IMG/VR virus record: IMGVR_UViG_3300045837_000032
Coordinates: 1 to 60,494 of that record
Length of the DNA: 60,494 nucleotides
Direction: 5' to 3' (one strand)
Source of the DNA: a virus
Taxonomy: Duplodnaviria > Caudoviricetes
Shown here one piece after another: positions 128 through 28,535 of this stretch. Numbering within the stretch: position 1 is the first letter of the stretch; the number at the start of each line of letters is the position of its first letter. The notes beneath the pieces were generated by a model. That model did no database searches and was not told the origin of the DNA. It was given only the letters and a program-made list of their open reading frames with translations. Position numbers and translations under genes: made by a program.

Positions 128-219
128 ACGCCGGCCTGGTCGCGGCCGGCGTCCACACCGACGACATGGACCGCGTCCGGGCGGTGGTGGGCGCCCAGAT
201 ACGCCGGCTGTCGGCATGA
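1..219 (+). CDS. Terminase small subunit, 3' part
   Basis: In frame with the ORF starting at 59894; its stop overlaps the TerL start. Confidence 0.75.
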   Translation: MLLYERSLTDLGRLLVAIGRLNLDDRLARIDDRLADIIVRSVDAGLVAAGVHTDDMDRVRAVVGAQIRRLSA

Positions 220-2581: not shown

Positions 2582-4008
2582 TGAGCGACGAATCAGACGC
2601 AGAGGACCAGTGGGTGGCCATGCAGGATCAGGGTCGGAAGCTGGCGTACGGCCTGGAGGCGTTCCTGGACTGGTGGGACGCGAACCCGAATGATCACGAG
2701 TGGTTCAGGATCGAACACCCGGACCAGTGGCACCGCCTGATGGCCGTACAGATGATGATGGCTCCGCGCCGTGCCGATCGGTTCGATGACGAGATCAAGG
2801 CATACCTCCAGGCGATGGCTAACCGAATCGCCCGTTACCTGGGCGAAGACGACACGGACGCCTACCTGCTGGATGACACGCTGTACCGACTGGACACGCT
2901 CACCGGGCACGTGCCAGTTCGTGGCCAGATAGTGGACTTCCCGTGACAGAGCGCCTGGACGATGACGGCCGTTGCGTCGTCTCCGACCTGTTCCCGGACC
3001 AGTGCGCGTGTCCGGATCATCGCGGCGGTTCGTTGCCGGATGACGCGGACCCGCACGGCCAGGGCCTGGCATCGGCCAGGCGTGACCACGATGACCAGAC
3101 GCGGGACCAGTGGGGCAGCGCCATGTTCCTGGCCTCGTTCGGCGGCAAGTGCGGCTGGTGTGAGACCCCCTTTAAGGCAGGGGCCGGCGTGCGTTACGAC
3201 CAGGACGACCGGTTGGTCGGCCCGTGTTGCGCGGAGAACGATGTTCCGATCGACGGGCTGGGACTGTCCGATGTCTGATCAACTCGTGGCCCTGGCCGGC
3301 GGCCCGTACGACGGGCATTGGTACTGGCTGGCCGACTGGAACACCCGGCGCAGTTCAACCCAGGCGTTGCCGGACGTGCTGCTGTACCAGCCCACTGGCC
3401 AGATGGTGGACAACCCGAATCCGGCCTACGGCAAGGGTGAGGTTTGGCGCTACCGGTCGCCGGCCGGTGACGACTACCAGGAGCAGATCGTCACGCTGGC
3501 GTCCGGGTTCCGCGCGGTGGTGTGTCCACGGTGCGCCCGGCCGGCCCCGACGCTGATCGTGTTCAGCCTGGCGCACCGGGACGCACCGATCCGAGAGTGC
3601 CCGCGTTGCGCCTACCCGGCCCAGCGGTACCTGGGTGACTACGTGGAGACCATGCCGGAGCGCTACCTGGACTGGTACGAGGCGCACGAATACGAGGCCG
3701 TGGTGACAACCGATGACCACGAATGACAGCGAATGGTCAGAGATGGCCATGGCGCTGACCGACCGGTTCGGCCAGTTGGTGACCTGGTGCCGGGTGTTCG
3801 CCGTCGGCCAGCCCTGCTCAACGCCATGCGCGGACTGCCGGATGAGCGCGGCCGAACTCCAGAAGATCAAGCGCGATGGCGGACACATCAACGAAATGGG
3901 GGAAACGTGAACTCGAATGACTGGGCCGTGCTGCTAAGCGCCGTGGCCATTCTGATCTCCATTGTCTCGATCGTGCTCAACATCAAGATGCGGAGGGGCG
4001 GCCGATGA
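2581..4008 (+). other. Run of small overlapping hypothetical genes (2581-2946, 2943-3278, 3271-3726, 3713-3910, 3907-4008), several with CxxC motifs
   Basis: Stop/start overlaps and GC3-rich frames. Confidence 0.6.
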
Positions 4009-4616
4009 TGTGGCACGGACACTTGGCCATGGCAGTGGCCAGTGCGGAGGTCACCGAACCGCTGGCACCGCACCCGCTGGGGCCGGTCGCCTCCGTGGCG
4101 GCCTGGTGCGCCATCGTCGGCATCTGCGGACTGGCGTCGGATCTGGACCACCGGGACGGCAAGCTGTCCCACTCGCTGGGGCCGATCACGTGGGTGTTGT
4201 GCCGGCTGCTGATCAAGATCAGCAAGGCCGTCTACTTCATGACCAGGGGGCCGCGCGACTACCAGCACACGAACGGCCACCGGGCCTTCACGCATACCCC
4301 CGTGTTCGCCGTCCTGGCGGGCGCTGGAGCGTGGCTGGCCGTCCCGGCGCCGTACTCGTGGTTCGTCGGCCTCGCGGTCACCCAGGGAATCCTGGCGCAC
4401 CTGGCCGGGGACTGCTGCACGAACTCCGGCGTGCCGCTGCTGTGGCCAATCATGATCAAGGGTCGGCGGTGGGGCCACTACGGCATTCCGAAAGCTCTGC
4501 GGTTCGAGACGGGCGGACCAGTGGGGGAGCCGATCATGACGCTGGCCATGTACGGGCTGTGCGCCGTAGTGCCGATCGCCTGGCTGATGGTGGGCGTGCG
4601 GCTGTGGGCCGCGTAG
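4005..4616 (+). CDS. Membrane metal-dependent hydrolase (YdjM/LexA-binding-like)
   Basis: Motifs HGHL, SDLDH, GHRAFTHT, AHLAGD..TNSGVPLLWP; several hydrophobic segments. Confidence 0.8.
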   Translation: MMWHGHLAMAVASAEVTEPLAPHPLGPVASVAAWCAIVGICGLASDLDHRDGKLSHSLGPITWVLCRLLIKISKAVYFMTRGPRDYQHTNGHRAFTHTPVFAVLAGAGAWLAVPAPYSWFVGLAVTQGILAHLAGDCCTNSGVPLLWPIMIKGRRWGHYGIPKALRFETGGPVGEPIMTLAMYGLCAVVPIAWLMVGVRLWAA

Positions 4617-7149: not shown

Positions 7150-7355
7150 CTCGCGCCTGCGTAGTTACGCGTGCGCGTGACGTGCGAGTGCGACGCGCGT
7201 AAGGCGCGTGACGTGCGCGCGGATGTGCGCCTGGGTGCCCGCGCGAGACTTGATCATTTTCGGGCGGCGAAGATCATTTGAAGATCATCCGGTGATCCAC
7301 TCAGTTGATCAGATGTCGATCACTTGTTGATCACTAATGGATCTTCAAAGATCGT
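7150..7355. repeat. Non-coding repeat locus: CG-alternating tract with a 14-bp direct repeat, plus a phased GATC array
   Basis: GCGCGTGACGTGCG at 7173 and 7204; GATC at 7252, 7272, 7283, 7294, 7307, 7318, 7329, 7340 and 7350. Confidence 0.85.
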
Positions 7356-7463
7356 CAAGAGGTGGCGTCATCAGTGGTCAACCAGGGCGGGTGCCGGGCC
7401 TCGCTGTAGGTGCAGGTCAGAGCTGTATCACTAGTCCGATCGGGTGGTGTCTCTCCGGAGGGG

Positions 7464-7492
7464 TGTTGCCCCGGTGCCAAGGGGGGTAACTT
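7464..7492 (+). promoter_or_regulatory. Conserved promoter/operator, copy 3 (variant)
   Basis: TGTTGCCCC...GGGGGGTAACTT. Confidence 0.65.
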
Positions 7493-7537
7493 AGGTCTCG
7501 CAAGGCCACCAGGAACCAACGAGATGCGGGAGACATC

Positions 7538-7702
7538 ATGACGGACCTGCCGGGCGTCGGACGGATCGCGGAGAAGGACGACATTGCCCCCGAGGGAACC
7601 GTGATCACCAGGCAGCACGTGATCGACTACCAGAACCGGTGCAACGCGGCGGCGGCCCGCCTGGGCCTGCCTCCCTCGTTCCCCAACGTCCCGAAGAACT
7701 GA
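7538..7702 (+). CDS. Small hypothetical protein (54 aa, not in the track)
   Basis: SD GGGAG; MTDLPGVGRIAEKDD... Confidence 0.55.
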   Translation: MTDLPGVGRIAEKDDIAPEGTVITRQHVIDYQNRCNAAAARLGLPPSFPNVPKN

Positions 7703-7814
7703 CCCAGACGCCCCTGCCGGCCGGCGGACGAGCCCCGGCCGGCAGGGAGCCCACCAGGAAGGACAGCCCGATGAACCGCACCGCCAAGATCTTGACCCGC
7801 GTGATCGGCCAGCC

Positions 7815-8231
7815 ATGACCACCTGGGAGATCCCGGTGCCGATGGTCGAGACGGACCGCCACGGGCGAGCGTGCCCGTGGACCCTCAACGACCGACCGCC
7901 CTGGACGACGCGTCGAATGCACGCTGCACGGATCAAGAGCGATGTGGCGTGGCGCGTGAAGCAGCAGAAGATCCCACCGCAGGACCACGTGACGGTGCAA
8001 CTGCACTACGCACCCGGCGACAACCGACGCCGGGACGCCGACAACCTTGTCGCCACGAGCAAACCAGCGGTCGACGCCCTCGTGCGGTCGGGCGTCGTGA
8101 GGGACGACTCGCCGCAGTACGTCACGCAACTCATGCCGACGATTCACGCCGGCAATCAGGAGCGGCGACTGTGGCTCGTCATCACCGACGATGCTCCGGG
8201 TGGCGTGCCCGACTACCGGGACACGCCATGA
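7815..8231 (+). CDS. Second RusA-like endonuclease
   Basis: RRRDADNL..KPAVDALVRSGVVRDDSPQYV. Confidence 0.8.
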   Translation: MTTWEIPVPMVETDRHGRACPWTLNDRPPWTTRRMHAARIKSDVAWRVKQQKIPPQDHVTVQLHYAPGDNRRRDADNLVATSKPAVDALVRSGVVRDDSPQYVTQLMPTIHAGNQERRLWLVITDDAPGGVPDYRDTP

Positions 8232-8292
8232 GCCCGCGTGCCGCTCGCGGCCTGTCGCCCAACCCGCTGACCCGCACGAACAGGAGCTGACC

Positions 8293-8706
8293 ATGAACAT
8301 CCGGACCACCACCTGGTCCACCGACCAGGCCAGCGATCTGGCGGCCTACCTCTACAACAACGCCATCCTGGACACCGTGTTCACGGCGATTCACCAGCGC
8401 ATGACGATCCAGAGCCACATGGACTTGTCCGGCTGGCACCTGTCCCGCGTGTTCACCGACCACGGCACGGTGTACCGGGCGGAGGTCAAGGTCACGTACA
8501 ACCAGGGCCAGTACGCCCGGCAGACCGCCGGCACGGTGGACGCCGGCCGCCGGTACATCATCCTGGACCACATCGGACAGCCGACGACCAGCGCGGACAC
8601 GCTGCACGAGGCCCTGGTCCGCGCGCTCCAGGAGCTGGTCCAGATCACCCCCGTGGAGTGGCCGGCCCGCTGGCCCTACGGCGAGTTCAGCAGCGTCAAC
8701 CGTTGA
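8293..8706 (+). CDS. Hypothetical protein
   Basis: SD CAGGAG; start at MNIRTTTW. Confidence 0.65.
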   Translation: MNIRTTTWSTDQASDLAAYLYNNAILDTVFTAIHQRMTIQSHMDLSGWHLSRVFTDHGTVYRAEVKVTYNQGQYARQTAGTVDAGRRYIILDHIGQPTTSADTLHEALVRALQELVQITPVEWPARWPYGEFSSVNR

Positions 8707-8760
8707 TCGACCGGCCCGGCCGTCGTTTTTCCCCCGGCGGCCGGGCCAGAAAGGCGTAAG

Positions 8761-8806
8761 CCCAGGTAACTGGCTATTGTGGCCCGCCATACAAGGGGGG
8801 TAACAT
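8761..8806 (+). promoter_or_regulatory. Conserved promoter/operator, copy 4, with upstream CCCAGGTAACTGG box
   Basis: TTGTGG-18 nt-TAACAT. Confidence 0.8.
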
Positions 8807-8850
8807 GGTGTCAACGGGGCAGGCCAGCCCCCCACCCGAAGGAGATCGAC

Positions 8851-9909: not shown

Positions 9910-11826
9910 CTACGCGGCCGGCTGACGGTCCGGGGCCGGGCCGGCGTGCCATGTGCCCTCGCGGCTGTGGGCATGGCCGGCGGCGGCCAGTTTGCGCAGG
10001 TGCCGGAACGCGGTCGCACGGGCCACGCCGGCACGTTCGGCCAGCTCCTGGGCGTTCGCCGGCCCGGCCATGAGCGCGGCCAGGATCGGGTTGTCCGGCC
10101 GAACCGGCGCCGGCACGACCATGCCGGCGGCCATAACCTCGTCCGTGGTGTCGGTGAGCGCGGCCCAGGCCGACGGCTCCAGAACGCGCATCCCGTCGGC
10201 CAGCACAGCATCAATGTGGGCGCGGCGGTCGCGCACGGACACCCGGTAGCCCTTCGCCGTCTCCGGCGTGTTGTGTTCGTCGTCCTGGAGCACGAACTGG
10301 CCTGGTCGCAGGCCCGTGCAACTCCAGCCCTGCCGGACCTGCTCCTTCCACAGCACCTTGTTGGCGTGCTGGTTCAGGCGCAGGCCGATGGTGGCCTTGA
10401 GCTGGGACTGGAGTTCCTTGGAGCCGGTGTCCGCGCGGGAACCGTTCTGCGCCAACAGGATCAGCCAGACACCCACCTTGCGACCACGCTTGCCGATGCG
10501 GCCCACCAGGGCCTGGTGTTCGCGGCCTACGTAGTTGTACTCACGGGTGGAGCGCGCGGCGGCCACGGCCACCCAGTCCGGGTACTCGTCAATGATCGCC
10601 ACCAGCCAGGGGTGCTCCGGGGCCGGCTCGATCGAGTCCCCGGCGTCGTCCGTGGCCTCTTTTGCCTGGCCCAGACGCTTTTCCCGATCTTCGATGACGG
10701 CCATCAGCCGCTGGAGCATGATCACCGTGGAGTCGTAGTCCTCCGCCAACGGCAGGGCGAAGCAGCGGCGCCACACACCCAGCGTGGCGCCGGAGGCCAT
10801 GTCCGACCCGACCAGCACCACGTCCCGGCAGGCCGTCAGCCAGATCAGCAGAGACTCCAGCAGCGTCGACTTGCCGGAGCCGGTCTGGCCGACCACCAGC
10901 AGGTGCTGGAGGGTCCACATCACGGCGGCCCCGGTGGCGTACAGGCCGATCTGGATACGCTTGCCCAGGCCAGCGAGGCTGATCGAGCCGGGAGCCGGCA
11001 TCGGGTGGGACAGCGCACCGCGCCACGGGTCACGGACCATGAACTGGAGGGTGATCCGGCTGCTGTTCGTGTCGTCCTCCGCCAAGCTCACGGCGCCACG
11101 GCGGAGCCGGTAGAACGACGTGATGTTAGGCAGGCAGTTGGCCACGTCCTCCAGGGTCGCACCGTGAGCCAGTCGCACGATGAGAGTGCAGAGACCGCGA
11201 CGGGTGCCGGTGGCCCCGACCACCTTGGAGTCCAGGAGCGGTTTCAGCTTCGTGTTGGTGGTGGCACCCTCCGCCAGCTTGCGCCACTTCCGTGCGTACC
11301 GGTCGGCCCGACCCGCGATCCGGATACGGCGGTGGTACCACCAGGTGCCACCGAACACGACGGTGCCACCCTGCCATCCGTAGGCGGTCCACTGGCTGGC
11401 ACCGGCACCGACCCGCAGTGCCAGCCAGCCCCCGATGAAGATCAGGACCAGTGCCAGGTAGATGCGCTCCGTCGGCCGGTCCAGCACACCCTTGCGGCCG
11501 GAGTCCATGGAGTCCGGTACCAGTGCCGTCACCACGCGGGCCACGCCCCGGGAGAGGTGAGGGCCGGCCAGTGCCAGTGCCAGACCGGCCGCCGGGAGTG
11601 CCAGTGCCACCGGCCACAGGTCCGGTGCCAGCGCCCGCCAGATCAGCGCCACGATCTCCAGGACCGTGGCCACCCACAGCGGTGCCAGTACCCGGCGCCA
11701 GCGCCAGGACAGCCGGCCGATCAGGCGCCCGATGGGCCGGAACACCCACCGCCACGCCGCGTAGATGGTCAGGCCGGTGACGACACCCTCCCCCAAGAGG
11801 TCGGCCAGCGGATGCCTGCGTGCCAC
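9910..11826 (-). CDS. traB: TraB-type FtsK/SpoIIIE conjugative DNA translocase
   Basis: N-terminal TM segments, Walker A GQTGSGKS, Walker B AIIDE, GRKVGVWLILLAQ and a C-terminal winged helix (AQELAERAGVARATAFRHLRKL). This is the architecture of actinomycete plasmid/AICE TraB. Confidence 0.85.
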   Translation of the reverse strand: MARRHPLADLLGEGVVTGLTIYAAWRWVFRPIGRLIGRLSWRWRRVLAPLWVATVLEIVALIWRALAPDLWPVALALPAAGLALALAGPHLSRGVARVVTALVPDSMDSGRKGVLDRPTERIYLALVLIFIGGWLALRVGAGASQWTAYGWQGGTVVFGGTWWYHRRIRIAGRADRYARKWRKLAEGATTNTKLKPLLDSKVVGATGTRRGLCTLIVRLAHGATLEDVANCLPNITSFYRLRRGAVSLAEDDTNSSRITLQFMVRDPWRGALSHPMPAPGSISLAGLGKRIQIGLYATGAAVMWTLQHLLVVGQTGSGKSTLLESLLIWLTACRDVVLVGSDMASGATLGVWRRCFALPLAEDYDSTVIMLQRLMAVIEDREKRLGQAKEATDDAGDSIEPAPEHPWLVAIIDEYPDWVAVAAARSTREYNYVGREHQALVGRIGKRGRKVGVWLILLAQNGSRADTGSKELQSQLKATIGLRLNQHANKVLWKEQVRQGWSCTGLRPGQFVLQDDEHNTPETAKGYRVSVRDRRAHIDAVLADGMRVLEPSAWAALTDTTDEVMAAGMVVPAPVRPDNPILAALMAGPANAQELAERAGVARATAFRHLRKLAAAGHAHSREGTWHAGPAPDRQPAA

Positions 11827-11827
11827 G

Positions 11828-12688
11828 TCAGGCTCCCTTCGCGAGATTGGCGATCTTGGTTGCGCGGCTGCTGCCGACGCCGAACTCCTGCATGACGCGG
11901 CGCCGGGACACGCGGTCCCACGTCCGCGCCATCTCCGCCAGCTCCGCGTCCGTCAGCTCCGACAGCGGCCCGGACGGGACTGTGGTCAGCCGGCGGCCAG
12001 TGGAGGCGGGGGAGACCTTGGCGCGGTCCCGCACTGGCACCGCCGGTACCTTGGTGCCGATCTCCGTCATGCTGATGGGTGCCATCACCAGGGTTCGTTC
12101 CGTGATGGACTCCGCTGGCACCGGTCGTGGTGTCGGTGCCACCTCTCGGACCGGTGCCGGCGTTGTAGGCGTAGGTGATACCGGGTCCACGGGGTGACGC
12201 GGTGCCGGTTGCGGTTCGGTCACGACTGGCACCGGTACCGCTGGATCGGCCGGTGCCGGTCGGTACTCCAGTGGTGGCCCTGGCACCGGTGCCAGGGCCG
12301 GTGCCAGTGCCGGCTCCGGCGCGCTGTGCTTGTGCAGGACCAGCAGCAGCCACGCGAGCATGGCCGGCGGGATGGCACCCAGGATGGCGGCCAGGACACC
12401 GGACGCCAGGTAGTGCCAACTGACGTTGCCCGCCAGAGACAGGCCGATGGCGGTCAGCGCCAGCGCACCGGCCGACCGCGCGGCCCGGCCGTGGCGCATC
12501 CACACGTCCATGGCGAACGCGGCCACCGCGTCCAGGGACAGCGGAAACAGCCAGTCCGTCCAGCCGAACCCGGCGCGGGCCGCGAGCGACTGGACGGACG
12601 TAAAGCTGATCACCGCTGTGGCGGACACGGTGATGAAGGCCAGCACACGGAGCCGGACGGTCCGCACGCGCCAGCTACTCACCTCCAT
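11828..12688 (-). CDS. DUF2637/Spd-like membrane spread protein with C-terminal HTH
   Basis: ISFTSVQSLAARAGF...LFPLSLD motif, about four TM segments, Pro-rich linker, C-terminal SRRRVMQEFGVGSSRATKI. Confidence 0.75.
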   Translation of the reverse strand: MEVSSWRVRTVRLRVLAFITVSATAVISFTSVQSLAARAGFGWTDWLFPLSLDAVAAFAMDVWMRHGRAARSAGALALTAIGLSLAGNVSWHYLASGVLAAILGAIPPAMLAWLLLVLHKHSAPEPALAPALAPVPGPPLEYRPAPADPAVPVPVVTEPQPAPRHPVDPVSPTPTTPAPVREVAPTPRPVPAESITERTLVMAPISMTEIGTKVPAVPVRDRAKVSPASTGRRLTTVPSGPLSELTDAELAEMARTWDRVSRRRVMQEFGVGSSRATKIANLAKGA

Positions 12689-12952: not shown

Positions 12953-13017
12953 CGGAGATGTCAGAGAGCGGAGGGAACATCCTCTAGCCGGACGAGATCG
13001 ACGGGAGACGATCACAG

Positions 13018-14277
13018 ATGAGCACCATCGACACCTTGCGCCACGCCACCCTGGACGACATGATCAGCACCTTGCGCAGCCAGCAGGCCCGTAAGATCGA
13101 CCTGGTGATGCCGGCGTCCGCCATGCGGTTCCGGGACGGCAACCTCGTGGTGAAGGGCCTGGACTGGATTCTGGACGACAACGGCGCCACGGACCCCAAC
13201 GGCGTTTACACGCCCACCAAGCGCGCGGACCAGACCCTCTCCGACCGGCTCAACGTCCCGGGCGCCTACCTGACCCGGATGCGCAACGAGCGGCCCGACG
13301 TGTACGACTTCACCCTGAACCGGCTGGCCGGTGGCGTGCGCAAGGCCGACGGCACGATCGTCTACGAGGCCGACGGCCGCGACTTCCTGGCCCGCCTGTT
13401 CCGTGGCGACGACGGCCAGGGCGGAGTGCTTCGCGCCATGCTGTCCAACCGCTACGGCATCCAGGACAACCTGGACGTGCTGATGGCAGTCCTGGCCGGG
13501 ATCAACGCGGCCAGCGCGGAACGTGAAGCCCAGGGCCTGGAGGCACTGGACGTTCAGGTCCGGGACTGTGACCTCACCGACTCGCGGATGAACGTGTCCC
13601 TGTACTCGCCCCAGGTCAAGGCCATGGCGCCCAACCTGCTCCGGGCCTACCGCAACCCGTTCCAGGTGAATCCGGAGTTCGCCCAGGCGCGTGGCGGGGA
13701 CGCGGAGGTGGAGCACTGGCGCCGGATCGCGGAGCGCGAGGGCATGGCCTACGAGCGTGGCCAGGAGCCGGTGGTGTTCGCCGGGTTCCGCATCCGCAAC
13801 AGCGAGGTAGGCGACGGTGCCCGCTGCCTGACCCCGGACATCTGGGTGCGGATCTGCAAGAACGGCCTCACCCTGCCGCTGTTCGCGGACTGCAAGGCCC
13901 ACCTGGGCGCCCGCATGGAGGCCGGCGTGTGGAACGCGGAAGTCCAGACCAAGGAGACCGAACTGATCGTGGCCCAGGTCAAGCAGCGGGTCAGCGAGTG
14001 GCTGAACCCGACGTTCCTGGCCGACCGCATCAACGAGATCGAGGCCCTGGCGGGCAAGCCGGTGACGGAGCCCACCAAGAAGATCAAGGCCCTGGGCAAG
14101 ACGTTGAAGTGGTCGGACGCGGAGGCGGACGGCATCCTGGCGCACTTCACCACGGGCGGCCAGCTCACGGCGGCCGGTGTGGCGAACGCCATCACCTCGT
14201 TCAGCCAGACCCTGACCAACGCGGACCGCGCGTCCGACCTGGACGACCAGGCGGTCAAGGCCATGAGCCTGGTGTGA
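13018..14277 (+). CDS. DUF932-like phage/plasmid protein
   Basis: RAMLSNRY, GFRIRNSEVGDGA, VRICKNGL and H.G motifs with a helical C-terminus. Confidence 0.7.
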   Translation: MSTIDTLRHATLDDMISTLRSQQARKIDLVMPASAMRFRDGNLVVKGLDWILDDNGATDPNGVYTPTKRADQTLSDRLNVPGAYLTRMRNERPDVYDFTLNRLAGGVRKADGTIVYEADGRDFLARLFRGDDGQGGVLRAMLSNRYGIQDNLDVLMAVLAGINAASAEREAQGLEALDVQVRDCDLTDSRMNVSLYSPQVKAMAPNLLRAYRNPFQVNPEFAQARGGDAEVEHWRRIAEREGMAYERGQEPVVFAGFRIRNSEVGDGARCLTPDIWVRICKNGLTLPLFADCKAHLGARMEAGVWNAEVQTKETELIVAQVKQRVSEWLNPTFLADRINEIEALAGKPVTEPTKKIKALGKTLKWSDAEADGILAHFTTGGQLTAAGVANAITSFSQTLTNADRASDLDDQAVKAMSLV

Positions 14278-14283
14278 TAGACC

Positions 14284-14318
14284 GGCTGGCGGCCGGAGGT
14301 TCGGTCCGGCCGCCAGCC
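14284..14318 (+). other. Perfect 14-bp hairpin (processing or attenuation site) before the tRNA-like RNA
   Basis: GGCTGGCGGCCGGA-GGTTCGG-TCCGGCCGCCAGCC; no U-tract. Confidence 0.7.
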
Positions 14319-14322
14319 ACCT

Positions 14323-14406
14323 GGGGACGTAGCTCAATCGGCAGAGCACAGAGGCCGGCCGGCTACAACAGGACTGTGGTTCCGGGTTCGAGTCCCGGCG
14401 TCCCCC
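14323..14406 (+). ncRNA. tRNA-like RNA 1 with an expanded anticodon arm
   Basis: Acceptor stem GGGGACG/CGTCCCC, D arm GCTC-AATCGGCA-GAGC, T arm CCGGG-TTCGAGT-CCCGG; anticodon arm 11 nt longer than canonical. Confidence 0.8.
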
Positions 14407-14442
14407 CCGCGAGAGGTTATCCAACGACGGACGGAGATCGAC

Positions 14443-14619
14443 ATGGCGGAGCAGCGCGGCGGCAAGGTGACCAACATCGTGGAGGGTGCGGCCACCAATG
14501 TGACGCAGGTCGGCAACACCGACGGTGACGGCGGAGAGGTCACCAACATCGTGAACGGTGACGCCACGAACGTGTTCCAGGCGGGCACGATCACGGGTGG
14601 CGTGCACATCGGTCGGTAG
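14443..14619 (+). CDS. 58-aa two-repeat RHIM/BASS-like amyloid-motif protein (not in the track)
   Basis: SD GGAGA; MAEQRGGKVTNIVEGAATNVTQVGNTDGDGGEVTNIVNGDATNVFQAGTITGGVHIGR; GC3-rich codons. Confidence 0.75.
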   Translation: MAEQRGGKVTNIVEGAATNVTQVGNTDGDGGEVTNIVNGDATNVFQAGTITGGVHIGR

Positions 14620-14627
14620 CAAGAGCC

Positions 14628-14711
14628 GGGGATGTAGCTCAATCGGCAGAGCTGTGGCAGGCTGGCCAGCTTCTACGCCACGAGGTCCGGGTTCAAGCCC
14701 CGGCATCCCCC
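14628..14711 (+). ncRNA. tRNA-like RNA 2 with an expanded anticodon arm
   Basis: Acceptor stem GGGGATG/CATCCCC, same D arm as RNA 1, stem GTGGC/GCCAC closing 18 nt, T arm CCGGG-TTCAAGC-CCCGG. Confidence 0.8.
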
Positions 14712-14891
14712 CGAAGGGTGCCCGTGAGGGCTGCCACCGTGCACGGTCCGGCCGCTGCGCCACCGCTCACCGTACGGCCGCACCTGGGCCGGACACTATG
14801 GCGGGACGTGTGGGACGTGGAGGACAAGGCAGGACGTAAGGCTCGAACTCGGCGGGCGCGTCCACCCTCTGAAATGTCGTCTCCCGCGACA

Positions 14892-14944
14892 CGCCAAGGC
14901 CCCGGGACCGCTCACCACAGCGGTGGAACCCCGGGGCCTTGGCG
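14892..14944 (+). terminator. Long hairpin, probable terminator
   Basis: CGCCAAGGCCCCGGG ... CCCGGGGCCTTGGCG. Confidence 0.55.
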
Positions 14945-15059
14945 CTGTCCGGGCCACGGACGCGTGCCGTCGGCTGCCCATCGCGGCGACGCGGCCACGG
15001 TAGGCCAGGCCCGGGTGACGTGGATAGATCGTGGATTTTTGGTGGATCGAAAAAACCTC

Positions 15060-15089
15060 TTGTGGCCCCAGGCTTAAGGGGGGTAACAT
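15060..15089 (+). promoter_or_regulatory. Conserved promoter/operator, copy 6 (leaderless), with AT-rich upstream DNA
   Basis: TTGTGG-18 nt-TAACAT; ATG at 15097. Confidence 0.8.
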
Positions 15090-15096
15090 TGAACCC

Positions 15097-17777
15097 ATGC
15101 GGACGATCATCACCCCGAAGCAGCAGGCCGGTATCGAGGCCATCAACGCGGACCCGTTCGCGCTGGGCATTGCGCCCGTGACGCTGGACGCGCTGGTGCG
15201 CAAGGGGCTGGCCCGGGACCTGTCTGGCGGCAACCGCCTGCGGTACGAACTCACGCTGGCCGGGCGCCTGCTGCTTCCTGGCGTGGACGTGACCGCCCAC
15301 CAGTCCAGCGTGGCCCTGGCCGCGCCCGCGCTGTTCCCGACGACGGATGAGGACTTCTGATCATGACGAATCACCCGGACCCGAAGTTCACCGGTCACTA
15401 CACGGATCGGGACGCCACGCTGGACAGCGTCGTGCAACTGGACGTGATCAACGGCCGGGACGCGGTCTACATGACCACCCGTACGGAGCTGTTCGGCGGC
15501 ATGGTCAAGACGGAGGCCAGCGTCACTCTGGAACCGGCGGCTGCGGTGAAGCTCCGCGACCAGCTCACCACCATGGCCGTGTTCAACGAGTGGGAGCGTC
15601 CGGCGACGTTGCCACCGGGCATCAGGGCCAGCTTGTCCATCCTGGTCAACCAGGCGCATCAGGGCCTGGACTCCGGTCGCAACGAACAGGACGTTCTGGC
15701 CGATGTGCTGGCCAGCATCAACACCCTGCTGGGTGCGTCATGAGCGACTACCCGAATGGCGCGGACCAGGGCCGGATCGATGACCTGGCCGCCCGGCTCC
15801 GGCGGGCCTACAACGGCATGAACGGCGCCAACGACCAGTGGCGGCATGTTGCCTCCGTGGCGTACGTGCACATCGGCCGCGAGGTCACCAAGCTGACCGA
15901 CGCCCTGACCGCGCTGCACATCCGGGCCACGGAGCAGATCAACAACGAGGACGCGGACCGCCAGTACGTACTGGAGGGGTTGCTGGCCAGTATCGCGGCG
16001 CTGGCTGGGTTCAACGAGGACGAGGAGGGCTGACCCATGATCAAGGGTGTGCTGACGGAGCAGTTGATCCGCATGTTCGCCGTGGAGGGTGAGGGGCCGG
16101 TGGATCGGCCGCACTCCGCAACGCGCATCGTGGTGGACCGCGTGGAGATCACCTACGAGCGGACCACGGAACGCGGCTGGACCCCCAAGAAGATCCACAT
16201 CAAGGGCTGGCGGGCCAAGGCCGACGGGACGGCCGGCGGCCAGTTCCTGGAGGAACACTGGTACTACAACCCGTCGCCCGATCCGGCCGTGATGGGGAGC
16301 TGGGGCTACGCCATGCCGCCAGCCCTGTGGCTGACCGTGCTGGCCGCGAACACGTGCCCCGACGGGCCGGCCCTGGAGCCGGTGCCGGGTAGCGGAGAGG
16401 CCGCCGTGGACCTGGACGCGGTGGAGGGTTGACCGGTGGCCACTCTGCCGATCTCCGAAGAACGCCTGTTCACCTTCATGGTGGAGAACGAGGCGCCGGT
16501 CCGGCGTCACGGCGCCATGGACTTGATCGTGCCGAACTGGCTGGTGGTCACCTATTCCCAGCACACGGACCCGGATTACCGGCGCGCGTGGATCGTGCGG
16601 TGCGTGGAGGTCACGGGCTACCGCGCCAAGCGGGACGGATCGGCCGGCCAGACGGCGGCCCGCGCCACGTGGTGGAGTCCTGGTGCGCCGGAGTTCGAGC
16701 TGTGGCCGGAGTGGCTGGCCAAACTGATCACCGCGAACATGCCGATGTGATCATGGATGACCTACACCTGGTCCAGATCACGATCACGTGCCGTGGCTGT
16801 GGCGCGCGGTGGAAGACGTGGTGGACGGAGTCAGGAAACCAGCAGATGCCAGCATGTCCGGACTGTGTTCCGGGCCTGGAGTAGCGACAACCGATGACAA
16901 GGGAGTGATCACCATGGCGGATGCCAGATGGCAACCGCAGGGACCGCCGGCCCGTGGTGAACAGGTCACCACGGAGGCCGTACAGCGGGCCGTGAACATC
17001 ATCAAAGCCGACAACAAGGTCAGCCGCGAGGAGCGGCGCGCGGCCCGGAAGGCGGCACGGGCATGAGCGGTCCGAATGAGTTGGGCACGTACACACGGCG
17101 GCTGGTGGCCGATGTCAGTGCGGAGCTGGACCGGCGCCTGGCCGCGCTGGGCGAGATCCGCGACCGTGAGGCCACCTGGGCGGACTACCTCATGGCCCAG
17201 GCGTATGAGGCGCTGGGGCAGGCGGACGCGGCCAACGTGCGCACGGTGCTGATCGAGCTGGCCGCGACCGCGCTGGAGTGGGCGCGTGACATCGATCTGA
17301 CGGAGGCCGGCCACGGTACGCACGAGATCGTGTGCAGTGAGCCGGCACGGGCCACGCCACCGCCGGATCTGGCGTGGCCCGTGCCGGTCCGGCCCGGCGG
17401 ACCCGTTCACGGCGGGTTCCGCGTTGTCGACGGCGGGAACTATGACCAGCCGTGACCACGGCGGAGCGCACCGCGCTGATCATCATGACGGTGATCAGCG
17501 CGGTGATTCTCGTAGCCTCCGGGATCGCCTGGTGGACCGGGCGGTAACCATCCTGGTCGCGCATCCGGAAGCGCTGTACCGGCCGAACCCGCGCCATGGT
17601 CAGTGCCGCTGGCTGGGCTGTGACGAGGCCCCGACGGATCTGGCCGGCCCGTGGTGTTGGCGGCATCGGGCCTGGCACTACGCCAGGGTGCGCATCCGGG
17701 AGGACATGCGCCGGGCGGTGCTCCGCGAGGTCGGCACGCTGGCGCAACTGGGCCTGATACGGAGCGAGTACGTCTGA
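15097..17777 (+). other. Early operon of small hypothetical genes (15097-15360, 15363-15743, 15740-16033, 16037-16432, 16436-16750, 17063-17455, 17442-17777 and others)
   Basis: Tightly packed same-strand ORFs after the promoter. Confidence 0.6.
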
Positions 17778-22526: not shown

Positions 22527-23084
22527 GTGAGCGAGCCAGTCAGGGAACCCCGGCCGGCGGATTTCGGCCTGGTGCGGATCAGGGGAGCATCGGGCGGCCT
22601 GATCCGGGTGGGCCAGTACCTGAACGAAGTGCGCTGGCGCACGCTGTTCGACCGCACGCTGTGGCGCAACGTCCAGCACGCGTTCGTCCTGGTGGACGAC
22701 AACATGGTGGTGGAGGCGGAGCCGGGCGGCGCGCGGCACGTCTCCCTGGACGAGTACAAGGACGAACAGGTTATCTGGTCGTACTGGGACCTGACCGACG
22801 ACCAGCGCGCGGCCATCGTGGCGGCGGCCATGAGCCTGATTGGCACGCCGTACAGCTTCCTGGACTACGGGTCTCTGGCGGCGCGGCGGCTGCACATCCC
22901 GATACCGGGCCTGCGCAAGTACATCCAGGACACCGGGCACATGATCTGTTCCCAGCTCACGGACGAGGCGTACCGGCTGGGCGGGCAGCAGATGTTCGCT
23001 GATCACCGTTGGGCCGGCGACGTGGACCCGCTGGAGCTGTACCCGGTGCTGGGTGGCCCGCTGATCGGTGAGGTGGCGGCCTGA
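22527..23084 (+). CDS. Permuted papain-like (NlpC/P60, YiiX-like) enzyme
   Basis: His (QHAFV) precedes Cys (MICSQL); IGTPYSF. Confidence 0.7.
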   Translation: MSEPVREPRPADFGLVRIRGASGGLIRVGQYLNEVRWRTLFDRTLWRNVQHAFVLVDDNMVVEAEPGGARHVSLDEYKDEQVIWSYWDLTDDQRAAIVAAAMSLIGTPYSFLDYGSLAARRLHIPIPGLRKYIQDTGHMICSQLTDEAYRLGGQQMFADHRWAGDVDPLELYPVLGGPLIGEVAA

Positions 23085-24043: not shown

Positions 24044-24052
24044 GAGGCGGTG

Positions 24053-26632
24053 ATGGGCTGGTTCGGCAACCGCACCAGACAGCCCAACGGGAAGCGCCTC
24101 CCCAGCTCCACCATGACGGCCGCCGGCTCCAGGATGGACCTCGCGGACCATGACATCATCCGGCAGATCGTCCGCACCAAGATGGGCTGGCAGACGCACG
24201 CCTGGGACTACCGGGATCTGATCGGTGAGCTGTCGGGCGCACTGCGGTTCCGGGCCAATGTCATCAGCAAGGTGGGCCTGACGATTGCCCAGGTGACCGA
24301 TGGTGACGACGTACCGGTGGACGCGGACAGCCCGCACGCCACTCTGGAGCCGGCGGTCCGCAAGGCGGCCCAGGACGCGTTGAACAAGCTGCCCTGGCGC
24401 TCCGGGTACATGTTCGGCGGCCTGCTGGATACCAACTTCTCCGTGGCTGGTGAGGCGTGGCTGCACGGCCTCCAGGACAAGGGCAAGGAGAAGTGGACCG
24501 TTCTGTCCACGGACGAGGTTCAGCCGCTGGGCGGTGGCTCGAACCTGGGCATCGTGGACCTGCCCGGCCAGCCGGCACGGCCGATCAACCCGAAGACGGA
24601 GGTTCTGATCCGGCTGTGGGTGCCGCATCCGCGTTTCAAGCGGCTGGCCGACAGCCCGATGCGCTCCTGCATCGACGTGTGCATGGACATCCTGCTGATC
24701 GGCCGGGAACTCCGCGCGGCGGCCCGGTCCCGTGTGGCGGCCAACGGCCTGCTGCTGGTGCCACACAGCCTCTCCATGGTTCGTCACGGACCGAACAGTG
24801 ACGAGGATCGGGACTTCCAAACGGAGCTAGAGGCCGCGCTGCTGGCCCCGATCACGAACGAGGGTGAACCGGGTTCGGTGGTCCCCATCGCGATCGAGGG
24901 GGATATCGAAGATCTGAAAGAGGTCCGGCACATCCAACTGGTGCGGGAAACGTCGGCGGACCTGAACGAGAAGCTGACCCGGTCCCTGACCCGGCTGGGC
25001 GAATCGATCGACGTACCCCCCACCGTGATGACGGGCCTCCAGGACACCAACCACTGGAACGCCTACGTGATCGACGCGACCACGTTCACCAACCACATCG
25101 AACCCGGTGTCCGGATCATGGTGGACTCGCTGACGGAGGGCTACCTGCGTCCCAGCCTGACCATGCCGACCACCCAGGGCGGCTACGGGCTGTCCGACGA
25201 TCAGGCCGCCACGGTGCAGGTGTGGTACGACGCCGGCAAGGTGGTGCAGAACGCCAACCGGGGGTCCGACGCCAAGGACGCGTACGACCGGCTGGCCATC
25301 GGCCCGAAATCACTGCGTGAGGCGCTGGGGTTCAACGACGGCGACGCGCCCACCACCGAAGAACTCATGACCATGATCGCAAGCAAGATCAGCGTAGATC
25401 CGGGCACGGCCGGCCAACTGGTTTCGCGAGTCCTGGGCATACCGGCCCCGCCGACGCCAGCGCCCACTCCGCCGGCACCCCGGCCGCAATTGCCGCCCGG
25501 CGAGTCCCCGCGCAACCCTGGTACCGGATCGGTACCAGTCGGCCAGCCCAACGCCCCGGACATCGGGGCTCGAACCGCGTCGGCCGCCATCGATGCCAGC
25601 CTGCGCATCGTGACCGCCGATCGGCTGGCCGCGATCGATGCCGCGCTGCTGGACCGGCTCACGACGGCCGCTGACGCGGCAATCCGGCGGGCGGTGGAGA
25701 AGGCTCAGGCGCGCATCCGGTCGGCCGCCCAGCACCATGTGAGCCGGCCGGAGCTGACCGCGCACGCCGATGACCTGGCCGCGTGGCTGGGTCCGGAGCG
25801 CGTGGCGGAGCTGGGTGTCCTGGAGGACGCGCTGCTGGCCGCCGCGTTCGACTACCTGGCGGAGAAGTTCGCGAAATGGACTGTTCAGGCCATCGGCCAG
25901 GCGGTGCGGGTGGTCGCGAACATGACGGCCATGCCGCTGACGGCCACGGCCGCGCTCACCCGCGCGATGACGGCCCGCGTGCCGGCCGCGTGGTCGCGTC
26001 TCCAGGCCGCGCTACACCAGCGCACCCTGAACGCCCTGTACGGCCGGACCGGGCAGGAGCAGCGCGGCGAGGCCACCGACGAACTGGTGCGACCCGGTGA
26101 CATCCGCACGGCGCTGGCCACGATCGGCGGCACGGATGCGGACGAGGGCGGCCGGTCGGCTACCTCCATCGGTGGAATCGGACTAGGCCAGGACGTGCTG
26201 GACACCGTGGAGCAGGTGGCCGGGCCGCCCATCGGCCTGATGTGGATCTACGGGCCGGAGCCACGGGACACGTTCGAGCCCCACCTACGGCTGGACGATC
26301 ACCGCTACGACAGCCCGACGGACCGCCGGCTCACCCCGCCGGCCGGATACGAATGGCTGGGTGCCTACATGCATCCCGGTGACCACGCCGGCTGTCGGTG
26401 CCACACCGCGCCGGCCTGGATCTTCCCGGAGAACGCGGCCAGCATGGACCCCGGCCTCCGGGACCTGATCACGCGGACCGTGTCCGCTGGCGAGTCGGCC
26501 GCCATGCGCAACGAACGCGCGCTGGCGGAGATGGACGACGCGGCCGGGCGCACTGGCACCACAGCCCAGCGGGCGCGCGACCAGGCCGACAGGGTGAAAC
26601 GACTACGTGACGAGTGGCTTGGTGCCGCGTGA
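24053..26632 (+). CDS. Portal protein fused to a MuF-like C-terminal domain
   Basis: AWDYRDLIGEL, IRLWVPHPR...ADSP, GLLLVP and NHWNA are typical of actinophage portals; Pro-rich linker; C-terminal HPGDHAGCRC. Confidence 0.85.
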   Translation: MGWFGNRTRQPNGKRLPSSTMTAAGSRMDLADHDIIRQIVRTKMGWQTHAWDYRDLIGELSGALRFRANVISKVGLTIAQVTDGDDVPVDADSPHATLEPAVRKAAQDALNKLPWRSGYMFGGLLDTNFSVAGEAWLHGLQDKGKEKWTVLSTDEVQPLGGGSNLGIVDLPGQPARPINPKTEVLIRLWVPHPRFKRLADSPMRSCIDVCMDILLIGRELRAAARSRVAANGLLLVPHSLSMVRHGPNSDEDRDFQTELEAALLAPITNEGEPGSVVPIAIEGDIEDLKEVRHIQLVRETSADLNEKLTRSLTRLGESIDVPPTVMTGLQDTNHWNAYVIDATTFTNHIEPGVRIMVDSLTEGYLRPSLTMPTTQGGYGLSDDQAATVQVWYDAGKVVQNANRGSDAKDAYDRLAIGPKSLREALGFNDGDAPTTEELMTMIASKISVDPGTAGQLVSRVLGIPAPPTPAPTPPAPRPQLPPGESPRNPGTGSVPVGQPNAPDIGARTASAAIDASLRIVTADRLAAIDAALLDRLTTAADAAIRRAVEKAQARIRSAAQHHVSRPELTAHADDLAAWLGPERVAELGVLEDALLAAAFDYLAEKFAKWTVQAIGQAVRVVANMTAMPLTATAALTRAMTARVPAAWSRLQAALHQRTLNALYGRTGQEQRGEATDELVRPGDIRTALATIGGTDADEGGRSATSIGGIGLGQDVLDTVEQVAGPPIGLMWIYGPEPRDTFEPHLRLDDHRYDSPTDRRLTPPAGYEWLGAYMHPGDHAGCRCHTAPAWIFPENAASMDPGLRDLITRTVSAGESAAMRNERALAEMDDAAGRTGTTAQRARDQADRVKRLRDEWLGAA

Positions 26633-26639
26633 GGAGGCA

Positions 26640-28535
26640 ATGGTGAGCGGCAAAGGAAAGGCAAAGGTCACGCCGGGTACCGGCGGTGTGGAAGTCAACG
26701 GCCTGAACTCCGACGGCCAACTCCCGCTGTTCTTCCCCGCGCTGGTGATCGAGGGCATGAGCACGTCGGACGGCCGCAACATCGGAGCGGGCGCGCTGGG
26801 CCATCGCGCGCTGCCGATCAGCATCCTGGCCCAGTGGCAGAACCCCGGCCAGCAGGGTGGCCACGCGGGCGCGGAGGTCATCGGCCACCTGACGGAGCTG
26901 ACCCGCGTTCCCGGCCCGGAGGTGGTCAGTCGGCAGACCGGAGCACCATTCCCGGAGGGCACATTCGTGTGGCAGGGCCGTGGTGTGGCCGACCCGGACA
27001 CCACGGGTGGGAAGCTGGTGCAGGCCGGCCACCTGCGTGGCAACTCCGTGGATCTCGCGGATGTTGACTATGACGAATCGTTCGCGGATGACGGAAAAGC
27101 CACGATCAACATCACGCGCGGCGAGATCGCGGCCACCACGCTGTGCCCCATCCCGGCGTTCGCGGACGCCTACGTGGAGGTGGTGGCGGACGAGGAGCCG
27201 GTGACGGCCGCCGACCTGGTCAACACCGACATGCTGGCGGAGCTGGACAGCGTGCTGGTGGCCGCCGGCTACGGGCCGGACGCGGCACGGCGGGCCGTCC
27301 AGTCGTTCATGGACCTGGTGGCCCATCCGCTGCCGCCGTGGCGGTCGGCGGAGCTGGGCGACACGTGCGGCGAGTGCTCCGCCCAGATCGATGGGGACGA
27401 GTGGACGGAAACCCAGAACGCGGACGGCACGATCACGTTCAGCCCGACCGTGGCCAAGCGGCGCCGGGCCTACGCGCGGGGCCTCGCGATCAAGGGCGAG
27501 AAGTCGGACGGGTCGGATGCCAGCTATCCGATCGAGAACCAGTCGGATCTGGACAAGGCGGCCGGCATGGTCGGCCTGGGGTCGGACTCGAACGGCAAGA
27601 TCCGGGCGCACATCAAGAAGGCGGCCCGCAAGCTGGGCCTGAAACTGCCACCCAGCCTCCAGGCGTCCGGTACGCCGGCCCTGCCCCCACTGGCCCTGTT
27701 CTCCGATCCCGGACTGACCGCCTACACCCCCGTGCGCGTCGGTGACCCTCGTCCCGACGGCCGCCGGGAGATCGTCGGCCACATCGGCCAGTGGAACGAC
27801 TGTCACGTCGGGTACACGAACACCTGCGTGCGGATGCCGCACAGCCGGGTGGACTACGCGCGGTTCGCCACGGGCGCGGCGCGGTGCGTGGACGAGACCG
27901 GCCAGACGCGTCTGGCGGCCGTCGGACCGCTGTCCATGTCCCGCAACCTGTCCAGCGGTGGCCACGCGCCCAGCACGCTGAACGAGGCGGACGCGGTGGC
28001 GTTCTACGACAACCACTGCACGGCCGTGGCCGACGTGGCGGTCGGTGAGGATGAGCACGGCGTGTGGATGCACGGCCTGACGCGGCCGGACGTGACGGAG
28101 GCGGACGTGGACCGCATCCTGGCCACGCCGCCGTCCGGGGACTGGCGCGGCTACCGGGGCAACCTGGAGCTGTGCGCCATCCTGCTGGTGCCCCGGCCCG
28201 GCTACGTCGTGCCGCGCGCCCGCGTCGCCTCCGGTGAGCTGGTCAGCCTGGTGGCCGCCGGTATCCCGGTGGGCCAGTTGGCCGGTGACGGAATCTCCGA
28301 ACAGGCCATCGTGACGGCCGTCAACAAGGCCCTGATCGCGTTCTTCGACCCGGACAACGACGGCGATATCGACCGGCCGATCGATCCGACGCTGGAACAG
28401 GGCGACGATGCCGGCCCCGGTGACCCGCCGAACAAGCCGGACATGGCCGCACGTCACCAGGCCGCACTCCTGGCCATCCGTCGGGGCGACGCGCTGGCCG
28501 CGCTGGACGCCGGCCCTTTCGATCCGGCCCGGTAG
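26640..28535 (+). CDS. Capsid maturation protease with inserted domain(s)
   Basis: EG.STSDGR, GHAGAEVIG, ATTLCPIPAF; inserted SYPIEN..DL..A module; C-terminal GHI, YDN and SGDWR motifs. Confidence 0.85.
   Translation: MVSGKGKAKVTPGTGGVEVNGLNSDGQLPLFFPALVIEGMSTSDGRNIGAGALGHRALPISILAQWQNPGQQGGHAGAEVIGHLTELTRVPGPEVVSRQTGAPFPEGTFVWQGRGVADPDTTGGKLVQAGHLRGNSVDLADVDYDESFADDGKATINITRGEIAATTLCPIPAFADAYVEVVADEEPVTAADLVNTDMLAELDSVLVAAGYGPDAARRAVQSFMDLVAHPLPPWRSAELGDTCGECSAQIDGDEWTETQNADGTITFSPTVAKRRRAYARGLAIKGEKSDGSDASYPIENQSDLDKAAGMVGLGSDSNGKIRAHIKKAARKLGLKLPPSLQASGTPALPPLALFSDPGLTAYTPVRVGDPRPDGRREIVGHIGQWNDCHVGYTNTCVRMPHSRVDYARFATGAARCVDETGQTRLAAVGPLSMSRNLSSGGHAPSTLNEADAVAFYDNHCTAVADVAVGEDEHGVWMHGLTRPDVTEADVDRILATPPSGDWRGYRGNLELCAILLVPRPGYVVPRARVASGELVSLVAAGIPVGQLAGDGISEQAIVTAVNKALIAFFDPDNDGDIDRPIDPTLEQGDDAGPGDPPNKPDMAARHQAALLAIRRGDALAALDAGPFDPAR

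Follow-up and report, generated by a model that had tools for sequence, protein, structure and literature searches.

A predicted stand-alone protein of 58 aa, encoded by a complete phage genome, was found to consist almost entirely of two pseudo-repeats of a motif that also occurs in Actinomycetes genomes. The explanation that we prefer, and to which we give somewhat less than an even chance, is that the ORF is a real phage gene whose product carries two copies of an NB-ARC-TPR/Bell/PNP_UDP motif and may serve as a blocking cap, a reading that draws on sequence comparison and on analogy with known systems. The motifs called host motifs hereafter are those of the Actinomycetes genomes that were searched.

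Phage Genome and Location of the ORF

The window, which is the whole stretch of DNA that was analysed, is an entire virus record of 60,494 bp with direct terminal repeats that is rated complete, and its features are collected in Table 1. The terminase gene lies ~22 kb from the portal gene, with roughly 35 genes between them, mostly small ones of unknown function. The 58-aa ORF is located between these two genes; its assignment to an early operon in the original prediction found no backing, as no promoter or terminator consensus was found and the genes of the terminase-portal region are of unknown timing. The only long minus-strand block found (9910-12688) holds the FtsK/SpoIIIE-like ATPase and, after it, a 286-aa protein that has hydrophobic stretches, an arrangement that we take to be reminiscent of the transfer genes of actinomycete conjugative elements. 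The 185-aa ORF upstream of the portal may be a protease-type or auxiliary gene, judging from its PHROG match.

Table 1. Positions of the features detected in the window.
Feature	Position	Strand	Description
Terminase large subunit	216-1925		
Hydrolase-like gene	4005-4616		
FtsK/SpoIIIE-like ATPase	9910-11826	-	PHROG E 9.5e-16
GC-rich hairpin	14284-14318	+	14-bp perfect stem; 7 nt past the stop codon of the 419-aa gene (13018-14277) that precedes it; without U-tract
tRNA-like gene 1	14323-14408	+	Acceptor, D and T arms intact; 22-nt insert for the 7-nt anticodon loop; Rfam tRNA 50.5 bits
Shine-Dalgarno GGAG	14433-14436	+	6 nt before the ATG; read from the sequence
58-aa ORF	14443-14619 (stop included)	+	Stand-alone two-repeat protein with amyloid-signalling-type motif
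Repeat 1 (aa 6-26)	14458-14520	+	Truncated motif copy without the I-x-G-G-V-H-x-G tail; carries Glu14
Asp/Gly linker, repeat 2 and tail (aa 27-58)	14521-14616	+	Complete copy of the host effector/receptor motif
tRNA-like gene 2	14628-14712	+	18-nt insert for the anticodon loop; Rfam tRNA 49.1 bits
185-aa ORF	22527-23084		Enoyl-CoA hydratase/ClpP-like PHROG, E 5.8e-18; shortly before the portal
Portal	24050-26632		
Second portal/protease-like gene	26607-28535		PHROG: portal type and head-maturation protease family
Erf-like gene and DnaB-like helicase	49-57 kb		

The cultured relatives of the phage are distant, with best matches of 38% for the terminase and 41% for the 419-aa gene upstream of the ORF, and all of these matches are to phages of Actinomycetes except one cyanophage. 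DNA of the phage was found in soil and rhizosphere metagenome DNA runs, with no RNA run among them, and reads from four runs that were compared with the sequence yielded no variants, only short pieces that are identical or match by chance. Among 401 Actinomycetes genomes, the best match to the portal (36% identity, E 8.4e-94) lies in a genome that also bears the motif (G126), which is a weak hint, from sequence likeness, to the host range. The phage is likely a soil actinophage with filamentous Actinomycetes as hosts.

Evidence That the ORF Is a Gene

In this frame, no start codon lies between the preceding stop and the ATG at 14443. The GC content of the ORF at codon positions 1, 2 and 3 is 0.63, 0.46 and 0.86, as compared with 0.66-0.71, 0.44-0.59 and 0.83-0.95 in the five long genes of the window that served as the comparison set, and a crude selection of genes by GC3 retained it as one of 74 ORFs. 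Between repeat 1 (aa 6-26) and repeat 2 (aa 30-50), 14/21 residues and 46/63 bases are identical, the identity at codon positions 1, 2 and 3 being 18/21, 16/21 and 12/21, respectively; the differences are thus concentrated at the silent third position, which is the pattern expected of a translated duplication. The protein ends in ...ITGGVHIGR, and the peptide has no Pfam match at E<=1 and no match in any family library searched.

The original prediction had described an ORF with a good Shine-Dalgarno sequence, GC3-rich codons and two 21-aa pseudo-repeats, and each of these was found where it had been placed. Its proposal that the ORF is a plausible gene also held up, given the GGAG, the GC3 of 0.86, the third-position divergence and the existence of two-repeat homologues, and the ORF looks like a real small gene of the phage on these sequence grounds. 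That the frame is open merely by chance, in a spacer between tRNA-like genes, is most improbable: the ORF is short and without a match in any family library, as such a frame would be, but homologues of the same architecture exist with E down to 8.8e-11, and both the codon-position GC pattern, together with the Shine-Dalgarno sequence, and the concentration of the repeat divergence at third codon positions speak for translation.

Hairpin and tRNA-Like Genes Flanking the ORF

The hairpin upstream of the ORF folds at -34.7 kcal/mol (z -5.21), with 0/200 shuffles folding as well, and it is likely a transcript boundary or a processing stem. The two tRNA-like genes, for which the Rfam tRNA gathering score is 29, leave 34 nt between the first of them and the ATG and 8 nt between the stop codon and the second. 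ARAGORN assigned them no anticodon ('tRNA-???' for gene 1), and they depart from true tRNAs in their loops of 22 and 18 nt, against 7 nt, and in the G3-C70 pair that both carry. A single compensatory change distinguishes the insert hairpins (GCY-GGCC-RGC) of the two genes, which are paralogous and both resemble tRNA-Ala(UGC) in their 5' half. Over its first 27 nt, tRNA-like gene 1 is 96% identical to host tRNA-Ala(UGC); in the comparison of this gene with host tRNAs, the tally of 79/121 includes six genomes flagged as unpublished, and the isotype was assigned from the unflagged genomes only. The G3-U70 pair is an identity element of tRNA-Ala and is present in the host tRNA-Ala, whereas the acceptor stems of both tRNA-like genes have G3-C70.

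In elements of the mascRNA type, too, the acceptor, D and T arms of the cloverleaf are intact and a working anticodon loop is lacking, and the Rfam mascRNA-menRNA match was weak (23.1 bits, E 0.023) and below the gathering score. The phage flanks differ in being bacterial or phage elements that derive from or resemble tRNA-Ala, and their processing is putative. Cutting by RNase P/Z at the two elements may release a monocistronic mRNA of ~220 nt, and it is possible that the tRNA-like genes are processing signals or decoys for tRNA-targeting defences. They may also show that phages package small genes as separately processed transcripts. A search of the IMG/VR viral contigs with the exact insert pattern gave 40 matches, all of them due to chance, as none of these stretches overlaps a tRNA call; blastn of tRNA-like gene 1 against the GenBank phages gave no match.

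Protein Family and Structure of the Two Repeats

A phmmer search of 1,835,955,588 representatives at E<=0.001 detected six proteins, namely the ORF product and five others of 57-85 aa with 46-59% identity (E 8.8e-11 to 4.5e-4). The five homologues have a common plan, in which a short N-terminus, repeat 1, an acidic/Gly linker and repeat 2 are followed by a tail of the form G-G-(V/I)-x-(L/I/F)-G. When these six proteins were combined into a profile, it added P0007 (111 aa as called, E 9.3e-9) and, among 692 candidates, weakly matched P0008 (E 0.029) and P0009 (E 0.21), so that the family comprises 7 proteins in 5.8 billion. One member, P0002, lies on a contig of 60,497 bp, close to the 60,494 bp of the phage, and the contigs of the other members are 839-5794 bp in length; phage-sized contigs are known for only 2/7 members. 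An Arg/Trp-rich C-terminal tail follows repeat 2 in P0006 and P0007, which suggests, from its composition, membrane or nucleic-acid binding in some relatives.

Further searches did not enlarge this family. A search for near-length homologues with the single peptide recovered nothing but the peptide itself, and a profile search for longer homologues found none among 8000 scored candidates, which is weak evidence. The peptide had no tblastn match at E<=1 in the GenBank phages (50,697) or in plasmids, P0009 had none at E<=1 in the GenBank phages, and megablast of 13000-16000 matched no GenBank phage. No confirmed relative came from scanning IMG/VR with either the family alignment or the neighbouring gene, and the metagenome scans with query A4 and with P0007 gave no relatives. 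The check for homologues in phage genomes that had been put forward with the original prediction returned none in the GenBank phages and none confirmed in IMG/VR. The ESM Atlas gave leads of 0.82 for the peptide and of 0.94 for P0009, the latter with Actinomycetota clusters; in one of these, 10% of the members have PF20701.

The two repeats differ in a consistent way. With an HMM built from the host motifs alone, repeat 1 scored 6.2 bits, spanning model positions 3-23, and its tail is missing in 7/7 family members in the alignment. The position before the conserved Gly is acidic in repeat 1 of 6/7 members and basic in repeat 2 of 4/7; the same position is acidic in 0/21 host motifs, and in the phage protein it is occupied by Glu14 of repeat 1. 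The linker between the repeats is variable and acidic across the family, and repeat 2 with its tail measures 28-32 aa. The composition of the peptide is G 21, V 14, T 14, N 10, I 7, Q 5, K 1.7, P 0 and L 0%. AF2 predicts, with low confidence (pLDDT 53.7), an all-beta monomer whose two repeats have the same pattern of strands.

The Motif in Actinomycetes Genomes

Amyloid-motif NLR-like receptors are abundant in filamentous Actinomycetes. A relative of P0009 with 78% identity was present in a Pseudonocardiaceae MAG, and 401 Actinomycetes genomes centred on this MAG were searched with the phage-family profile at E<=0.01. Matches were obtained in 15/401 genomes at 18 places, 16 of which are real; the remaining two (L015 and L018) are unrelated large proteins and were dropped. 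Re-reading of the wider flanks of the 16 places yielded 21 motif segments, and the motif occupies three kinds of position, at the C-terminal end of short proteins, near the N-terminus of long proteins and after PNP_UDP_1. Among ten motif-bearing frames searched with Pfam, NB-ARC or AAA_16 with TPR directly follows the motif in four (L025, L026, L031 and L036), PNP_UDP_1 precedes it in three (L030, L032 and L037), and no Pfam family was found in three (L022, the 756-aa frame of L030, and L033). Short proteins with the motif at the C-terminus were found at L024-L029 and likewise at the locus of the Pseudonocardiaceae MAG (L002).

Four loci (L025, L026, L030 and L033) carry the motif in both of two adjacent genes; the pairs at L025 and L026 consist of an NB-ARC-TPR gene beside a short protein, and that at L030 of a PNP_UDP gene beside the 756-aa protein. 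The resemblance to motifs at the N-terminus of NLR-like proteins, which the original prediction had put forward without a search, was recovered, with profile matches that precede NB-ARC and TPR, end Bell-like proteins or follow PNP_UDP, and with the four sharing loci. At L034 (6001-7080), two motif-bearing frames overlap on opposite strands, so one of them is probably spurious; the next gene downstream at this locus (7202-8848) encodes a Spo0M-domain protein. PADLOC returned only generic TPR and PNP-effector matches.

The short host proteins are 105-135 aa in length and homologous to one another over their whole length, L026 and P0008 having 42% identity over 105 aa (E 1.3e-18), and they begin with M, an acidic residue (D/E) at position 2-3 and then a hydrophobic helix. 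P0008 and P0009 (117-119 aa) are helical in their N-terminal part and bear one motif at the C-terminus, the ending of which is like that of the phage protein, and in the AF2 model of P0009 five helices (pLDDT 84-92) are followed by a disordered motif. In the accessible part of Dyrka et al. 2020 (bioRxiv 10.1101/2020.01.06.895854), the Bell domain is described as ~120-140 aa with an N-terminal hydrophobic helix, an acidic residue at position 2-3 and a five-helix bundle; judged from sequence and predicted model, P0008, P0009 and L024-L029 have these features. No Pfam or NCBIfam model matched proteins of the P0008/P0009 type, and Foldseek with the P0009 model gave no match at E<=0.001. In a further fold search with this model, the highest Z was 5.7 and CARD domains reached 5.4-5.5, below the stated noise level for helical bundles.

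At three loci (L002 6319-7455, L024 6375-7508 and L028 6687-7743), motif-bearing Bell-like proteins were found without an adjacent receptor gene; two of them directly precede a SpoU-type methylase gene, and the third lies upstream of the gene for a membrane protein of 233 aa. These Bell-like proteins are orphan effectors.

The phage protein might instead be a moron that serves the host or prophage, as the adaptor of a phage-borne exclusion system that plugs into a host receptor or effector and kills on superinfection. Defence genes are often phage-borne, as is generally known, and the cassette is insulated by the hairpin and the two tRNA-like elements, both of which would suit such a role. It is nevertheless very unlikely, since no integrase or repressor was recognised among the 30 ORFs scanned, no phage-encoded partner carries the motif, and 0/18 matched places in the 401 bacterial genomes hold a small two-repeat ORF.

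Closeness of the Phage Motif to the Host Motifs

Repeat 2 with its tail is identical to the C-terminus of P0009 at 18/28 positions (score 84), and its scores with the other 22 host motifs range from 39 to 79. By comparison, the four cognate host pairs are identical among themselves at 11/23, 16/25, 18/22 and 10/20 positions, with scores of 46-77, and the match between phage repeat 2 and P0009 is, by these alignments, as close as those of the cognate pairs. BLASTP of the phage protein against P0009 gave 22/40 identities (E 2e-8), with a 9-residue C-terminal end in common, and when P0009 was used as the query against the phage, only the 58-aa ORF was matched (E 2.1e-7). The HMM from the 21 host segments alone, run against 1251 six-frame phage segments, ranked the ORF best, with repeat 2 at 31.2 bits (E 8.9e-9), though this reciprocal match is partly circular because the host segments had been found with the phage profile. 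The same 1251 segments held no second motif-bearing phage ORF, the next best having E 0.2 and none exceeding 7.7 bits. The prediction of a complex between the peptide and residues 78-119 of P0009 scored 0.02.

These comparisons bear on the possibility that the protein is a self-assembling beta-solenoid with a role inside the phage, as a scaffold, decoration, condensate or regulator, and that it resembles host motifs through shared ancestry or convergence, without cross-talk. Such a role, which we consider fairly unlikely, would agree with a family of 7 proteins in 5.8 billion that has no member in the 50,697 GenBank phages and none confirmed in IMG/VR, with the capacity of G/N/V/T-rich beta-arch sequences to converge and with the AF2 strand pattern that recurs, at low confidence, in both repeats. 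It is harder to reconcile with 18/28 identities and the common 9-residue end with P0009, which are as high as between cognate partners, with the lack of any other phage segment above 7.7 bits in the host-only HMM, and with the location of the gene outside the structural module at 24-48 kb.

Proposed Function

In the preferred reading, that of a blocking cap, the complete repeat 2 would dock on the host motif in the manner of a cognate partner, and the truncated repeat 1, with its family-specific acidic residue and the acidic linker, would stack on repeat 2 in HET-s fashion. The resulting fibril end would be unable to template the next effector molecule, and during infection the peptide, as a cap or sink, would keep the death signal of the receptor from reaching the effector, working like the herpesvirus RHIM decoys without being a RHIM protein. 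A more specific form of this proposal, possible but doubtful in our judgement, is that the protein would be the first phage-encoded BASS-motif mimic, a one-and-a-half-rung cap whose complete repeat would be templated by the NB-ARC receptor or the effector of the host and whose truncated acidic repeat would then close the fibril end, which poisons prion-like death signalling and is carried in a mini-cassette with two anticodon-less tRNA-like elements.

However, the free aggregated motif activates the effector in the known systems (HET-S/[Het-s] and Bab/BASS11), as far as the accessible parts of the sources describe them, so blockade is not the default expectation and interference could equally mean activation. 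The closest host look-alikes (P0009 type: L002, L024 and L028) also do not adjoin an NLR gene, which counts against the cap model. The peptide may thus trigger rather than block, acting as a prion-like seed that converts a host Bell-like pore-former, for example to time or assist lysis. Because a free motif activates in known systems, we take this as a serious rival, albeit an unlikely one. According to the accessible part of Ibarlosa et al. 2024 (bioRxiv 10.1101/2024.11.07.622273), GFP-BASS11 aggregates together with Bab kill, and Agp peptide fibrils render Bab insoluble. The self-propagating HET-s domain likewise has two repeats joined by a flexible linker, again from partly accessible sources, and the Arg/Trp-rich tails of P0006 and P0007 could target membranes. 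What sets the phage protein apart from such a seed is that repeat 1 is truncated in 7/7 members and scores 6.2 against 31.2 bits for repeat 2, whereas HET-s has two complete rungs; in addition, lysis functions may already be supplied by the hydrolase-like gene, and early killing of the host would abort the infection.

Under the preferred cap reading, this is possibly the first phage protein that may interfere with amyloid death signalling. The statement in the original prediction that no phage example had been described agrees with our search of the full-text literature on amyloid signalling and phages, supplements being outside its scope, in which no phage-encoded motif was described. The word 'phage' is not mentioned in a 2026 review of amyloid signalling, and phage, virus and viral are not mentioned in a 2025 proteome-scale motif survey; 'decoy' and 'phage-encoded' are absent from the accessible part of Ibarlosa et al. 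2024 (bioRxiv 10.1101/2024.11.07.622273). If true, the proposal would provide indirect evidence that the amyloid-motif NLR-like systems of actinomycetes act against phages, and it would offer a natural 58-aa modulator, inhibitor or trigger, of prion-like signalling as an experimental handle. To our knowledge, phage defence by the NB-ARC/Bell systems of Actinomycetes has not been tested. The truncated-repeat design could also teach how functional amyloid is capped.

Comparison with Known Systems

The BASS motifs are described, in the accessible part of Dyrka et al. 2020 (bioRxiv 10.1101/2020.01.06.895854), as ~25 aa in length, enriched in Q/N/G/V/I and depleted in K/P/L, and repeat 2 with its tail has about this length and the peptide a composition of this kind. 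Like the motifs of the Bell/NLR-like pairs, the phage motif is ~25 aa, G/N/Q/V/I-rich and K/P/L-poor, and its two repeats compare with the two or three pseudo-repeats that effector-side motifs can form according to the same partly accessible source. The gene context of BASS was found for the host look-alikes (L025 and L026 with NB-ARC and TPR; L030 and L033) and not for the phage protein, which stands alone with no other phage ORF bearing the motif. Unlike BASS systems, the phage protein has neither an effector or receptor domain nor a partner gene, and its first repeat is truncated and acidic. The phage/host motif is of the BASS type, judged from its composition and gene contexts; motifs of this type signal through amyloid templating.

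The RHIM label of the original prediction was not sustained, as the peptide has no Pfam match at E<=1 and P0008 and P0009 show no RHIM at E<=10; Pfam RHIM was likewise absent at E<=10 from P0002, P0006 and P0007. The core tetrad of RHIM is (I/V)-Q-(I/V/L/C)-G, and the corresponding position reads T-Q-V-G in repeat 1, F-Q-A-G in repeat 2 and mostly V-Q-A-G/R in the host motifs, which is a partial fit. BASS3 was found through Pfam RHIM annotation, according to the accessible part of Dyrka et al. 2020.

The prion-forming domain of HET-s from Podospora anserina, which works with HET-S and NWD2, has two ~21-aa pseudo-repeats and a flexible linker as the phage protein does (PMC4518210, accessible part), and the phage peptide shows this arrangement of the HET-s-type beta-solenoid with 14/21 identical residues and an Asp/Gly linker. 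The opposite charges at equivalent repeat positions in 4/7 members of the phage family also recall HET-s. HET-s rungs are linked by inter-rung salt bridges. On the other hand, the rungs of HET-s are both complete and joined to a HeLo domain, unlike in the phage protein; no HET-s chain was present among the 27 rows at E<=10 in a PDB profile search. That search weakly matched BMC-H shell proteins (best E 0.0043), over 28-36 residues spanning the linker, and these matches were rejected because 58 aa cannot form the ~90-aa fold and nothing else supports it.

The Bab/Agp BASS11 abortive-infection system of E. coli, an amyloid-motif pair of effector and sensor, defends against phage according to the accessible part of Ibarlosa et al. 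2024 (bioRxiv 10.1101/2024.11.07.622273). Since amyloid-motif pairs of this sort can defend, a phage has reason to target such motifs, though Bab/Agp belongs to another motif family and another host and its sensor is not an NB-ARC protein.

The herpesvirus RHIM decoys (MCMV M45, HSV ICP6/ICP10 and VZV ORF20) prevent death signalling by forming hybrid fibrils, as described in the accessible part of PMC13506858. They are virus-encoded copies of a host amyloid motif, and the same working principle is proposed for the phage peptide. However, the herpesvirus decoys are large proteins with one RHIM that act on kinase-proximity signalling, while the phage protein is a stand-alone peptide of 58 aa without a RHIM match; and where the host output on the phage side would be the fold-templating of a pore-former, co-assembly might activate and not block, unlike in the herpesvirus case. 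If the preferred cap reading is true, viral amyloid mimicry, as known for the herpesvirus RHIM proteins, would extend to bacteriophages.
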